DNA from: Thermoanaerobaculia bacterium
GTDB taxonomy: Bacteria > Acidobacteriota > Thermoanaerobaculia > UBA5066
Reading direction: 5' to 3'
Assembly: GCA_038319835.1 (NCBI GenBank)
Contig: JBBQDQ010000005.1
Span: forward strand, 1-56,397
DNA length: 56,397 nucleotides
The number at the start of each line of letters is the position of its first letter. The stretch's first letter is position 1. A model generated the notes under the pieces. That model searched no databases and was not told the DNA's origin. It saw nothing but the letters and a program-made list of their open reading frames with translations. Below are positions 19,633 through 23,281 of the stretch, piece after piece. Both the position numbers and the translations under genes were made by a program.

Positions 19633-21312
19633 TCAGGCGGGGTCTTTCGCGAGCGCGACGATCGCCCTGCGAAGCTTGCCGTGCGCGTCGAAGAGGCGGA
19701 CGAAGTCCGACTCGCGCCGTCCGCCCTTGGCGCGGATCACCCCCGTGAGCGCGCTCTTCTGGGCAGCCGTCCAACCCGTCACCCCCGGCAGGATCGAGAC
19801 GAGCGGCGCCCAGCGGCGGAACGCGAGGCGTTCGGCGGACGTCCACCCGGCCGTCCGCGCGCCGAGGAGCCGCGCCGCCTCTGCCGTCAGGACCGACTCC
19901 GCCCTCTCGCGGTCCGAGCCGAAGCGCGCCGCGAGCATGTCCGTCACCCTGAGGCCGACGTTCGGGAGCTCGACGAGGCCGATCGCGTTGCTCCGCACCC
20001 GCCCGCCGAACCAGTAGAGGTTCTCCGAGGCGAGGACCTTCAGGTCCGCGAGCGACGTGCGGTGCTTCGGGTCGGCCGCCATCCGGCGCTCCTCCTCCTG
20101 CATGAGGGCGACCGCCCGCGGGGCGCGCGGGACGAAGCCGAGCTTGCGGTAGAACCACCAGGCTCCGGACTCGAGCGCTTCGGGGTTGCCGTAGCCGCCC
20201 AGCTGGTACGGGAAGATCGTGAAGACGTCGGACCCGAAGAGGGCCCGCGTCATCGAAAGGACCTTGCCGTAGACGAGGCCCGACTCGCCGCCCCGGAACG
20301 ACTCGAAGACGTTGTAGGCGATCTCGGAGGAGCCGAAGAGCGCGCTCGTGAGGACGTAGCCGATCGGGACGCCGTTCTTGAGCGTCAGGAACCCGTAGAC
20401 GGACTCGAGGAGGAGCCGGCGCTCGGGGACGACGCCGATCGCGGCGAAGGCGAGGCCGTCCGGGTACGTCACGAGGCGGACGTCGTTCGGGTCGCCCCAC
20501 TGGAAGGCGTCGAGATCCCGCTGGCGCGCGACCATCGCCTCCCTGGCGAGGTCGAGCCAGCGCCCCGCTTCGCGCGCGGGAACCGCCTCGATCGAGAGAG
20601 GGGGCCTCGCGCGCTCGCGGCGGACGTCGGGGCGGCCGCGGTCGAGGGGCTTCGTCTGGAAGACGACGGGCGCGGTCCTGAGACAGGCGTTCGTTCGCGC
20701 GGGCGTGCCCGCTCCGGCGTCGAGGACGAGCGGGAGCTCGAGGCTCTCCCACGCCGCCTCCCGCTCGAACGTGCCCCGGCCCAGCGTGGACAGCCTCCGG
20801 ACGAGGAAGGTGGCGTCCGTCTCCTTTGGGCCCTTCAGGCGATTCACCCAGCCGCGCGGCTTGAGGTCGAGCTCGTCGAGGGCGGGTGTTTCGGACCAGA
20901 GGGAGACGAGGGGGAGAAGGCGCTCGAGGGCAGGTCCCTTGTCGAACGCCTTCCAGTCGACGTGGAGCTTCCCGCCCCAGCGCGCCGCGAGCCAGCGCGC
21001 CGTGCCGGCGAAGAACGGGAAGCGCGTTTTCGTTCCCGCGATTCCGCTGTCTTCGAGAGCGGCGCGGTGGAGCCGGAGGTCGGGCCGCCGGGCGAAGCGC
21101 GCGAGGAGAATCTCGACCTTCGCCAGGACGGGCGCGTCGTCGGGGTAGGCGCGGAGGAAGCACAACGCCTCGTGGAGACGCTCGACCTCTTTCGCGGTCG
21201 TGAGGCGCGCGCGGGAGAGGACGTCGAGCGCGGTCCGCCGGCGGGCCACGGCGTCCTGTCCGCGGTCCGTCCGCGCCGACTCGAGGACGCGCAGGGCGTC
21301 CTTCGCCCTCAC
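19633..21312 (-). CDS. Uncharacterised ~560-aa protein with a GNAT-like C-terminal half
   Basis: GTG start overlaps the padR stop; KNGVPIGY...NVFESFRGGE...NPEALESGAWWFYRKLGF. Confidence 0.7.
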   Translation of the reverse strand: MRAKDALRVLESARTDRGQDAVARRRTALDVLSRARLTTAKEVERLHEALCFLRAYPDDAPVLAKVEILLARFARRPDLRLHRAALEDSGIAGTKTRFPFFAGTARWLAARWGGKLHVDWKAFDKGPALERLLPLVSLWSETPALDELDLKPRGWVNRLKGPKETDATFLVRRLSTLGRGTFEREAAWESLELPLVLDAGAGTPARTNACLRTAPVVFQTKPLDRGRPDVRRERARPPLSIEAVPAREAGRWLDLAREAMVARQRDLDAFQWGDPNDVRLVTYPDGLAFAAIGVVPERRLLLESVYGFLTLKNGVPIGYVLTSALFGSSEIAYNVFESFRGGESGLVYGKVLSMTRALFGSDVFTIFPYQLGGYGNPEALESGAWWFYRKLGFVPRAPRAVALMQEEERRMAADPKHRTSLADLKVLASENLYWFGGRVRSNAIGLVELPNVGLRVTDMLAARFGSDRERAESVLTAEAARLLGARTAGWTSAERLAFRRWAPLVSILPGVTGWTAAQKSALTGVIRAKGGRRESDFVRLFDAHGKLRRAIVALAKDPA

Positions 21313-21827
21313 GTGCGCGCCCTCTCGGCCGGACCGAGCGACCGGCCGGCGAGGAGCGCGGCCGACTCCGCGTCCGCCCACGCGAGCTCCGTCTCGAGGA
21401 GGACGCGCCGCCGCCGCCGTGCGGCCGTCGTGCCCGTCGCGGCGCGCTTGAGCTCGTCGGCGAGAAGGTTTCGGTACTCCTGCAGGCGCCGCACGCGGTC
21501 GGGCGGGAGGCTGCGCTCGAGAAGAGCGAGGCGGGCGAGCGTCGCGTCGTGCGGGCGCGGGAGCGAGAAGGGCTCCGCGACCCACTCCTTCAGCTCGCGT
21601 CGGCCGGACGGCGTCGCGCGGTACTCGCGCCGCGGAGGCCCCTTCGGCGAGCGCCGCCGCTTGAGCGAGACGAACCCGCCGCGCAGGAGACGCCGGAGAG
21701 AGGGATAGATCTGGGAGAGGTCCGCGTCCCAACCGCGCGCGGGATCTTCCGCGAGCCGCTGCTTGAGATCCCACCCGCTCGCGGGCGACTCGACGAGGAG
21801 CCCGAGGAGGACGTGGGAGAGGGACAT
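21309..21827 (-). CDS. PadR-family (AphA-like) transcriptional regulator
   Basis: MSLSHVLLGLL...SGWDLK...SQIYPSLRRL...GPPRREYRATPSG. Confidence 0.88.
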   Translation of the reverse strand: MSLSHVLLGLLVESPASGWDLKQRLAEDPARGWDADLSQIYPSLRRLLRGGFVSLKRRRSPKGPPRREYRATPSGRRELKEWVAEPFSLPRPHDATLARLALLERSLPPDRVRRLQEYRNLLADELKRAATGTTAARRRRRVLLETELAWADAESAALLAGRSLGPAERART

Positions 21828-21833
21828 GCGGTA

Positions 21834-21854
21834 AGTATATGACGACTCATATAC
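21834..21854 (-). promoter_or_regulatory. padR -10 element overlapped by a palindromic operator
   Basis: Perfect inverted repeat GTATATGA-cgac-TCATATAC (21835-21854); TATACT on the minus strand (21839-21834), 6 nt before the ATG. Confidence 0.7.
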
Positions 21855-21926
21855 CGCCGTGGAAAACCCGTGGAGTGCCCTGTGAATTACTGCCGTGCCC
21901 CGAGGCCAGGCGGCCGGTCTCCGGAC

Positions 21927-21955
21927 AAAAAAATAAGGGGGCTGGTGTAGCCCCC
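21927..21955 (-). terminator. Intrinsic terminator of the Lys-rich peptide transcript
   Basis: Minus-strand RNA GGGGGCU-ACACC-AGCCCCC-UUAUUUUUUU. Confidence 0.8.
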
Positions 21956-21999
21956 GAATCCCGGAAATACCTTGATTGGAATGGTTTGAAGTAACTAAG

Positions 22000-22062
22000 T
22001 TACTTCTTGCCCTTCTTCGCCTTCTTCGTGGTCTTCTTCGCAGCTTTCTTCTTGGCCGGCAT
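22000..22062 (-). CDS. 20-aa Lys-rich peptide MPAKKKAAKKTTKKAKKGKK (below the ORF-track cutoff)
   Basis: ATG at 22062, TAA at 22002-22000; SD GAGGAGGTGA (22080-22071) 8 nt upstream; own promoter and terminator. Confidence 0.8.
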   Translation of the reverse strand: MPAKKKAAKKTTKKAKKGKK

Positions 22063-22094
22063 GGTTTCTGTCACCTCCTCACTGGCAGGTTTCG

Positions 22095-22124
22095 TTGACA
22101 GTGCCGGAAGCTGCGTGCTAGGTT
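22095..22124 (+). promoter_or_regulatory. Putative antisense sigma70 promoter
   Basis: TTGACA (22095-22100), 18-nt spacer, TGc-TAGGTT extended -10 (22116-22124). Confidence 0.45.
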
Positions 22125-22234
22125 GTCCGCCCCTCGAAGGACGGGGACTAGCGCTCTTCCGGATTCTGTCGACTGCCTTGATTCAAGTCTCGCGACTCTA
22201 AGCGTCGATAGATTTCAAAAGATCTGGTTCCCGT

Positions 22235-22280
22235 GGGACGGCATCGTGAGTCACGATCACGGCGCCGTCCCTTTTTTCTT
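22235..22280 (+). terminator. Hairpin plus T-tract; possible terminator of an antisense RNA
   Basis: GGGACGGC-ATCGTGAGTCACGAT-cacggc-GCCGTCCC followed by TTTTTTCTT. Confidence 0.5.
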
Positions 22281-22290
22281 CCTGTAACGA

Positions 22291-22330
22291 ATTGTATAGA
22301 GGCCATACGGCGCGAATCAAGAATTTTTTT
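22291..22330 (-). promoter_or_regulatory. Sigma70-like promoter with A-rich UP element driving the leader and peptide
   Basis: Minus strand: AAAAAAATTC-TTGATT (22320-22315), 18-nt spacer, TACAAT (22296-22291). Confidence 0.65.
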
Positions 22331-22432
22331 CTTGACGAGCGAAGATTTTTTCACCCGTCGTTCCCGTCCCTTCGGACGACCGCGCGCACATCCGGGCTAG
22401 GATCGCGCGTGGAGAAAAATCCGGAGCCTCAC

Positions 22433-23281
22433 ATGACAGACGCACTCGTGCTCGCTCACTCGCCCGACTCCGACGACGCGTTCATGTTCTACGGACTGCG
22501 CGCGAACGCGGTGGACACCGAGGGCGTCACCTACACGCATACGCTCGCCGACATCGAAACGCTCAACCGCCGCGCGTTGGCGGGAGAGCTCGCGATCACG
22601 GCCGTGTCCTTCCACGCGTACGCGTATCTCGCGGACCGTTACGTGCTCCTCCCGCACGGTGCCTCGTTCGGCGACGGGTACGGCCCGTGCGTCGTCGCGC
22701 GTAAGGACGGCGGGCCGCGCACGCTCGCGGACCTCAGCGGCCGGCGGGTCGCGATCCCGGGCGTCCTGACGTCCGCCGCGATGTCGCTCGCGCTCTACAC
22801 GCAGGGCGTGACGCCCGTCGTGATGGCGTTCGACCGCGTCGGCGACGCCGTGAACGCCGGCGAGGTGGACGCGGGCGTCGTGATCCACGAGGGCCAGCTC
22901 ACATGGAAGGAAGAGGGGTTCCACCTCGTCGCCGATCTCGGCGTCGTCTGGAAGGACGAGACCGGCCTCCCGCTCCCCCTCGGCGGCAACGCGGTCCGCC
23001 GCGACCTCGGGCCGGAGCTGATCGCCCGCGTCTCTCGCGCCCTCGGCCGCTCGATCGTCTACGCCCTCGACCACCGTGAGGACGCCCTCACGGACGCGAT
23101 GCGCTTCGCCCGCGGCCTCCCGCGCGAGAAGGCGGACCGTTTCGTGGGGATGTACGTGAACGACTGGACGCGCTCCTACGGGCCGAAGGGCCGCGAGGCG
23201 GTCCGACTCTTCCTGAGGCGCGGTTTCGAGGCCGGGATCCTCCCGAAGCTCGTCGAGCCGGAGTGGGTGGCGGAGGACTGA
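22433..23281 (+). CDS. mqnD: 1,4-dihydroxy-6-naphthoate synthase (futalosine menaquinone pathway)
   Basis: AHSPDSDDAFMFY, GDGYGP, AGVVIHEG, LPLPLGG, MYVN. Confidence 0.88.
   Translation: MTDALVLAHSPDSDDAFMFYGLRANAVDTEGVTYTHTLADIETLNRRALAGELAITAVSFHAYAYLADRYVLLPHGASFGDGYGPCVVARKDGGPRTLADLSGRRVAIPGVLTSAAMSLALYTQGVTPVVMAFDRVGDAVNAGEVDAGVVIHEGQLTWKEEGFHLVADLGVVWKDETGLPLPLGGNAVRRDLGPELIARVSRALGRSIVYALDHREDALTDAMRFARGLPREKADRFVGMYVNDWTRSYGPKGREAVRLFLRRGFEAGILPKLVEPEWVAED

Follow-up and report, generated by a model that had tools for sequence, protein, structure and literature searches.

A conserved structured RNA leader with a putative cis-regulatory role ahead of a polylysine micro-gene in Thermoanaerobaculia

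We analyzed a 56,397-nucleotide (nt) stretch of DNA from a Thermoanaerobaculia bacterium (contig JBBQDQ010000005.1 of assembly GCA_038319835.1; the whole stretch is called the window here), in which an earlier note, made from the letters alone, had singled out positions 22063 to 22284 as an unassigned structured RNA leader of a peptide gene. That description holds. The leader is real: it is a conserved structured RNA, not described before, that is tied exclusively to a polylysine micro-gene. Its homologs retain its helices, no known family accounts for it, and its role is putatively cis-regulatory. Read on the minus strand, positions 22335 to 21927 make up one compact transcription unit, and the flagged stretch coincides exactly with the 5' leader of that unit. 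We are highly confident that the unit yields a self-contained mRNA of ~360 nt from the minus strand, that the flagged stretch is the 5' untranslated leader of this mRNA (~220 nt), and that the micro-gene is its sole frame.

Fold and conservation of the rod

The leader contains a 94-nt rod (22084 to 22177, minus strand) that folds into four helices, P1 to P4, and ends next to the Shine-Dalgarno sequence (SD) of the micro-gene. The earlier note had described an interrupted rod of ~95 nt held together by four pairings, and all of these are present, here in plus-strand letters: GGCAG (22084 to 22088) with CTGCC (22173 to 22177), GTTGACAG (22094 to 22101) with CTGTCGAC (22166 to 22173), CCGGAAG (22104 to 22110) with CTTCCGG (22156 to 22162), and GTGCTAG (22115 to 22121) with CTAGCGC (22148 to 22154). 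Folded alone on the minus strand, the rod reaches -40.6 kcal/mol (z score of -3.91), and none of 200 shuffled sequences folded as well; the rods of relatives, also folded alone, take the same shape (z scores of -4.69 and -3.56). The placement of the rod relative to the SD depends on how the latter is read. The last pair of the rod (22084) lies 5 nt from GGAGG (22078 to 22074), and the distance of 3 nt given in the earlier note is correct only if the SD is taken as GAGGAGG. In every family that carries the element, the rod ends 0 to 5 nt before the SD.

Comparison of homologs yielded a model consisting of a single long hairpin. From the foot upward, it contains P1 (5 base pairs [bp]; 22177 to 22173 with 22088 to 22084), a bulge on the 3' side, P2 (5 bp; 22170 to 22166 with 22101 to 22097), P3, which varies in both length and letters (22162 to 22156 with 22110 to 22104, extended toward the apex), an asymmetric internal loop whose 3' side is CAA..UAGCA, and P4, a GC-rich apical hairpin (22144 to 22138 with 22133 to 22127). 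Two sets of unpaired letters are invariant, namely CAA..UAGCA (22125 to 22116) and the bulge that follows CUGUC (22096 to 22089). The fourth pairing of the window sequence, CUAG with CUAG, is part of its minimum free energy fold and is lineage specific; other genera have a short helix at this site with other letters and in another register, and UAGCA is invariant. Within the genus, 70 of 95 columns of the rod do not vary.

Twenty further genomes from the genus match the complete 411-nt unit over its full length, at 76 to 93% identity. Conservation begins at the promoter and ends at the terminator: mean identity in the genus is 0.88 for the promoter, 0.90 for the rod, 0.91 for the open reading frame (ORF), and 0.94 for the terminator block, compared to 0.63 for a linker within the leader and 0.41 to 0.60 for the flanks. 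The pattern CTGTCAA-N(6-25)-GGAGGTGAC was found in 145 of 175 genomes of one Thermoanaerobaculia order (78 of the 89 good-quality genomes and 17 of the 24 genera), almost always as a single copy, and a reversed control pattern was found nowhere. All three families of this order (f1, f2, and f3) have a common architecture of promoter, 5' hairpin, linker, rod, SD, lysine-rich ORF of 18 to 26 codons, and terminator, and every copy of the rod that we examined stands ahead of such an ORF. These counts, like those of the class and phylum searches below, take in one or more of three unpublished genomes (G025, G030, and G089), and no statement depends on those genomes alone.

Covariance models extended the search beyond the pattern. 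A model built from f2 and f3 (R1) recovered all 42 loci tried and, in a draw of genomes from the class, detected the element in 26 of the 29 genomes that belong to the three families and in none of the 91 from 13 other families, under stricter Infernal filters with which weak matches may be lost. A second model built from all three families (R2) recovered 84 of 84 loci, as well as divergent copies in 2 of 5 genomes that lacked the pattern; among 151 genomes of the phylum, it matched only those of its own order (3) and none of the 148 others, again under filters that may lose weak matches. The 18-mer of the apical hairpin occurred at 105 loci in a collection of genome contigs, where 25 had the element and 80 were chance matches; the element-bearing contigs are labeled as metagenome-assembled genomes of Thermoanaerobaculia or Acidobacteriota. 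Among the genomes searched, the element is confined to one order of Thermoanaerobaculia.

As would be expected of a riboswitch-type element, the leader contains a structured domain in the 5' untranslated region (UTR) whose helices are kept through compensatory change. The homologous leaders that we collected retain these helices with different letters across the three families, and covariation is moderate overall and weak within families. In our assessment, the main structural support is the comparison between lineages, which can be read directly from the sequences. P1 is GGCAG/CUGCC in f1, GGCAG or GACAG with CUGUC in f2, and GGUAG/CUACC in f3. P3 is CCGGAAG/CUUCCGG in the window, GUGAAGAA/UUCUUCAC in genus g11, GUCGCG with CGCGAU or CGCGGC in genus g18, and GGCGA/UCGCC in f2, and P4 is CCGUCC/GGGACGG in f1 and CGCCCC/GGGGCG in f2. 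The same pairing was evident in alignment A7, a model-fitted alignment that leans toward the model (84 of 84 sources matched; 72 distinct rows, including loci from G025 and G030). Here, 90.9% of cells are standard pairs, compared to 31 to 47% when the partners are slid by 1 to 3 columns, and the covariation score of 0.267 (0.178 for shuffled alignments) was reached by none of 500 shuffles. Figures for alignment A6 (42 rows) were similar, and structure-blind MAFFT alignments within families gave pairing of 94% and 90%. Judged from these comparisons, the rod fold is well supported, though short of proof by a formal covariation test.

The earlier note had considered the strand unsettled, as wobble pairs seemed to favor the plus strand in some stems and the minus strand in the apical stem. 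On the comparative data, we regard this question as settled: the RNA lies on the minus strand, as does the peptide gene, because the G-U pairs fit the minus strand only and because the promoter, SD, ORF, and terminator are all co-oriented with it. Among the 72 distinct sequences, pair 9-91 of P2 is A-U in 53 and G-U in 19; pair 2-104 of P1 is G-U in 34, G-C in 33, and A-U in 4; and pair 38-51 of P4 is U-G in 25. Each of these 19, 34, and 25 wobble cells would become an A-C mismatch if the element were read on the plus strand. Two wobbles that appear on the plus strand are invariant C-A juxtapositions on the minus strand and, since they do not vary, are uninformative.

The micro-gene and its transcription unit

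The frame served by the leader is a micro-ORF of 20 codons plus a stop codon (22000 to 22062, minus strand), which encodes MPAKKKAAKKTTKKAKKGKK. We compared 66 distinct ORF sequences that specify 29 distinct peptides. Variable sites at the first, second, and third codon positions number 4, 3, and 13 in the 19-codon class (n = 28), 7, 6, and 13 in the 20-codon class (n = 17), and 0, 1, and 7 in the 21-codon class (n = 5). Pairwise codon differences, given as synonymous/nonsynonymous, are 1607/396, 561/420, and 35/4 for these classes, respectively, and 15 nucleotide versions encode one identical peptide. Because the variable sites fall mostly at the third codon position and the differences are mostly synonymous, the substitution pattern indicates that the micro-ORF is coding. 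A hand count over the 29 peptides gave 11 lysine plus arginine residues in 20, 12 in 8, and 10 in 1, and no acidic or aromatic residues in any. The peptides thus retain 10 to 12 positive charges, while their length (18 to 26 residues) and the order of their residues vary, which disfavors a fixed binding fold. An exact look-up of seven peptides, including that of the window, in ~15 billion proteins gave no match.

Stand-alone lysine-rich micro-ORFs also occur in other Acidobacteriota classes (22 codons at L224:1501-1569 and 14 codons at L243 on the minus strand). Their leaders are short and unrelated to the one described here; one has a hairpin (z score of -2.94), and one is unstructured (z score of +0.50). 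Other classes of the phylum also have long, H1-like proteins rich in lysine and alanine that start with the same MATKKK (L237 to L240).

The SD of the micro-gene is the 8-nt sequence GGAGGUGA (22071 to 22078, minus strand), which is separated from the start codon by 8 nt. GAGGUGA is present in all 72 distinct aligned sequences, most of which were collected with a pattern containing GAGGUGA. At the other end of the leader, a promoter of the sigma-70 type is predicted at 22291 to 22320 on the minus strand (-35 box TTGATT, 18-nt spacer, and -10 box TACAAT; 9 of 12 positions match). It is the one promoter-like site in a scan of 1.3 kb, where 0.1 was expected, and transcription is predicted to start near 22284. 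An A-rich single strand follows the promoter and leads to the 5' hairpin. Overlapping the -35 box is an inverted repeat with an A-tract, TCAAGAA-N5-TTCTTGA (22317 to 22335, minus strand), which is invariant in 20 of 20 genus sequences and retained as CAAGAAA...TTCTTG in the two remaining families. This repeat may be an operator common to the micro-gene and a divergent, MqnA-like gene, and its conservation at the promoter suggests an additional level of control, at transcription. The divergent gene (VitK2_biosynth; 22433 to 23281), which lies on the far side of the repeat, stays adjacent to the micro-gene in all three families.

The 5' hairpin itself spans 22236 to 22272 on the minus strand (9 bp, a 1x1 loop, and 5 bp; -20.6 kcal/mol, z score of -3.64). 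The second hairpin of the earlier note is real; however, the 6-nt bulge ascribed to it does not appear in the best fold, a plain hairpin interrupted by a 1x1 internal loop. The bulge stems from a local duplication that is absent from 6 of 20 genus sequences. The complementarity noted between CACGGC (22258 to 22263) and CCGTG (22231 to 22235) exists, but the alternative fold or pseudoknot built on it finds no support, for about half of the sequences of genus subgroup B have lost CCGUG in the 5' arm while the flanking ACGG stays. Changes to this hairpin in subgroup B are compensated inside the hairpin, and across the genus both partners change in 4 of its pairs. In f2 and f3, an unrelated hairpin occupies the equivalent place, beginning 6 to 8 nt past the -10 box. 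Because this is the usual position of a stabilizer of an mRNA 5' end, the hairpin probably acts as one. A 9-codon AUG frame within the hairpin has no SD and is absent from subgroup B, and we rejected it as a conserved upstream ORF. Between hairpin and rod lies the variable linker (22178 to 22235, minus strand), which differs among families.

Downstream of the ORF, a conserved 3' UTR block is followed by a predicted intrinsic terminator (21927 to 21975 in all, minus strand; stem at 21955 to 21937, then a T run). Just ahead of the terminator, the block AAGGUAUUUCCGGGAUUC is near-invariant in f1 and is not explained by pairing with the rod. Long-range pairing of UUUCCGGGAU from the 3' UTR with the 5' strand of P3 was rejected on two grounds: the compensation seen in locus L018 sits in the rod's own 3' strand, and genus g18 retains the 3' UTR block despite having other letters in P3. 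The next gene past the terminator has the same orientation and encodes a PadR-family regulator (21312 to 21827, minus strand).

Two departures from the single, intact copy were seen. In G011, a genome of the same genus, the full unit occurs twice on a single contig (C2:640136-640533 and C2:177861-178258), one copy for each genus subgroup, with 87% and 80% identity to the window. In G004 (end of C9 and end of C27) and G024 (end of C29 and start of C35), the unit is split across contig ends within the AAG-rich ORF, which looks like an assembly break at a low-complexity repeat.

Contigs from four RNA libraries of four studies, labeled wetland, freshwater, peat, and sediment metagenome, map to positions 21920 to 22262. 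One library contig set (X1) covers 21920 to 22082 and 22053 to 22250, X2 covers 21960 to 22155, X7 covers 21962 to 22262, and X6, a 300-nt contig with a depth of 221, lies on 21974 to 22185. These contigs are 85 to 99% alike and hence derive from relatives. None falls on 21850 to 21912 or on 22270 to 22450, apart from a 39-nt piece at 22313 to 22351, and they provide no evidence for the ends of the transcript. The coverage fits with transcription of the unit in nature and is supportive, short of proof.

Candidate functions of the leader

The reading that we favor is that the rod is an operator adjacent to the SD that is bound by a factor acting in trans, a candidate mechanism to which we assign a rough probability of 45%. 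The leader would then have two conserved modules, the hairpin at the 5' end, most likely protecting the mRNA, and the four-helix rod before the SD. The rod would act in cis: the trans factor would recognize those of its unpaired letters that do not vary (CAA..UAGCA and the bulge that follows CUGUC), and candidates for this factor are a protein, a small ligand, a polycation, and the peptide itself. Once bound, the stabilized rod beside the SD would alter either loading of the 30S subunit or decay of the mRNA, and so set the output of peptide. What argues for this mechanism is that the unpaired letters in the asymmetric loops are invariant while the neighboring helices change. This is the signature of a recognition surface, which favors an operator next to the SD, and stability alone leaves such invariance unexplained.

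Several results weigh against this interpretation. The SD is no more hidden by its own leader than by shuffled ones: its mean unpaired probability is 0.31 with native and 0.34 with shuffled leaders, and it is lower in 17 of 27 sequences, which amounts to no signal. No conserved alternative pairing that would hide the SD was found, and the predicted partners of the SD differ between lineages. R2 found no match in three fairly complete genomes of the family (G020, 91% completeness; G023, 96%; and G154, 96%), two of which are in the same genus. With respect to the fold, both-side changes occur in 11 of 24 pairs of A7, and 82 of 500 shuffles have at least as many; the within-family MAFFT alignments gave covariation scores no better than those of shuffles, 0.107 versus 0.092 (A5; reached by 31 of 500 shuffles) and 0.126 versus 0.125 (A4; reached by 188 of 500 shuffles). 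Double changes lie mostly between families, on model-fitted alignments, and represent few independent events. The invariance of CTGTCAA and GGAGGTGAC comes in part from pattern-based collection, as copies found by the model have GUGUCAA and GGAGGUGAA. Finally, contigs from RNA libraries may hold DNA and reveal neither the strand nor the ends of a transcript.

A simpler account is that the leader is a constitutive module for stability and translation, in which hairpin and rod would do no more than shield a very short mRNA from nucleases and place a strong SD at the base of a helix, with nothing bound specifically and nothing regulated. The strength of the promoter and terminator, together with the 8-nt SD, points to plain high expression, and no conserved fold that sequesters the SD was found; in addition, the lysine-rich micro-ORFs of other classes of the phylum make do with the short leaders described above, one with a hairpin and one unstructured. 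Such a module would not, however, need CAA..UAGCA and the AAUC bulge to be unpaired yet invariant across three families while the surrounding helices change, and the rod is conserved like the ORF (0.90 versus 0.91). We consider this account somewhat unlikely.

Alternatively, the transcript could be a dual-function RNA, an abundant molecule that acts in trans through the rod and its loops, as a base-pairing small RNA (sRNA) or a protein sponge, with the micro-ORF as a second product. The unit is independent, with its own predicted promoter and terminator, is conserved across families, and includes a short ORF with a coding pattern; its RNA letters are better conserved than its peptide letters, in that the loops are invariant and the peptides vary in length and order; and the short X6 contig is deep in its library. 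The conserved single strands are short, however, and the rod invariably borders the SD of its own ORF, which is where cis elements usually lie. A function in trans is thus unlikely in our estimation, more so than a plain stability module. Still less likely is a rod that senses the polycation state of the cell, with the peptide, polyamines, or Mg2+ binding the bulged helix by the SD and feeding back on translation; we hold this special form of the operator to be quite doubtful.

A two-state switch of the riboswitch kind would use the 3' strand of P3 (CACCUC in f2 and CUUCC in the window) as an anti-SD held by an SD-like 5' strand, such that a ligand-stabilized rod frees the SD. In the genus, RNAalifold does favor a hairpin in which UGACAG and GGAGG are the partners of CUGUCA and CUGCC, and the SD of the window sequence has a predicted unpaired probability of 0.08, compared to 0.29 with shuffled leaders. 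The 5' strand of P3 in f2 is also SD-like, and by eye its partner contains CACCUC. That SD hairpin is nonetheless not retained in f2 and f3, where the letters past GGUGA vary, the complementarity in f1 is weak, and the accessibility test over the 27 sequences was without signal. A simple, conserved on/off hairpin at the SD is therefore not supported by these predictions, and the switch as a whole is very improbable.

Least credible, to the point that we set it aside, is a plus-strand antisense sRNA that ends at the 22236 to 22272 hairpin and its T run, or else a protein-binding DNA repeat: the 228-nt stretch does fold slightly better on the plus strand (z score of -4.38 versus -3.31 on the minus strand) and has TTTTTTCTT after the hairpin on that strand, but the G-U pattern runs counter to it, the rod alone is better on the minus strand (plus strand: -42.7 kcal/mol, z score of -2.75, 4 of 200 shuffles as good), no plus-strand promoter is conserved, conservation is lowest (0.62) in the stretch past the stop codon, the T run is merely the A-rich 5' end of the minus-strand transcript, and the element is single copy rather than dispersed. 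The same hairpin and T run were rejected as a plus-strand intrinsic terminator, being unlisted by the terminator scan, with no conserved plus-strand promoter and a G-U pattern that fits the minus strand.

Relation to known RNAs and significance

None of 4227 Rfam models matches the leader: no match reached a gathering score in the window, nothing was found in the elements of five relatives, and a search of 21850 to 22450 at E values up to 10 found nothing in the element and only a chance match to ncS16 on the terminator. The earlier note had named 6S RNA, which is likewise an interrupted, rod-shaped RNA, as a family that might account for the leader. We rejected this assignment, as RF00013 has no match here and the canonical 6S RNA of the genome lies elsewhere (G000:C19:14346-14525, minus strand; 65.1 bits versus a cutoff of 46.4). 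Moreover, 6S RNA is ~180 nt long with a large central bubble, whereas the rod described here is half that length, has only small asymmetric loops, and is followed by an SD and ORF. An RNA thermometer of the ROSE, fourU, or cspA type was also rejected, with no Rfam match and no conserved pairing of the SD.

Other comparisons are partial. Autoregulatory operators directly 5' of the SD are found in ribosomal protein leaders, such as those of S15 or L20, and in the thrS operator. As in these systems, a folded domain abuts the SD of a small basic product, and feedback of the product on its leader is conceivable; unlike ribosomal proteins, the peptide here is of low complexity, and what is conserved in it is chiefly its composition and charge. 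None of the Rfam leader families matched. SgrS/SgrT, SR1/SR1P, and RNAIII/hld are dual-function sRNAs with a micro-ORF and, like the unit described here, are stand-alone, few-hundred-nt units that combine a structured RNA with an ORF of <50 codons. The structure here differs in lying upstream of its own SD and touching it. The cspA type of mRNA has a long, structured 5' UTR that acts as a thermosensor; it resembles our unit in its long conserved leader, strong promoter, and small product that is probably abundant and probably nucleic acid binding, but there is no similarity in sequence or model. Weinberg et al. 2010 (PMC2864571) submitted their motifs from Acidobacteria, Acido-1 and Acido-Lenti-1, to Rfam. 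Like the orphan leader motifs and riboswitch candidates found by comparative genomics, as in that paper, the leader described here is a 5' UTR element with persistent helices and invariant loop letters that serves one gene class in one lineage. It differs from them in serving a polylysine micro-ORF instead of a gene for an enzyme or transporter, and in that we found no conserved expression platform. Our literature search turned up no publication that deals with this RNA or with a peptide of this kind in Acidobacteriota.

The motif, whose boundaries are clear and for which 72 distinct sequences and a working covariance model are available, is a candidate for a defined RNA family. If the rod were indeed to sense polycations, the unit would be a charge homeostasis circuit; given the stand-alone lysine-rich micro-ORFs in other classes of the phylum, this would be a convergent type of RNA-based feedback that has yet to be described. 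The rod is the sole conserved noncoding handle on a group of polycationic microproteins (18 to 26 residues, 10 to 12 positive charges) that have never been annotated, and identifying its binder, or the conditions under which it opens, would show when the peptide is made and hint at its purpose.

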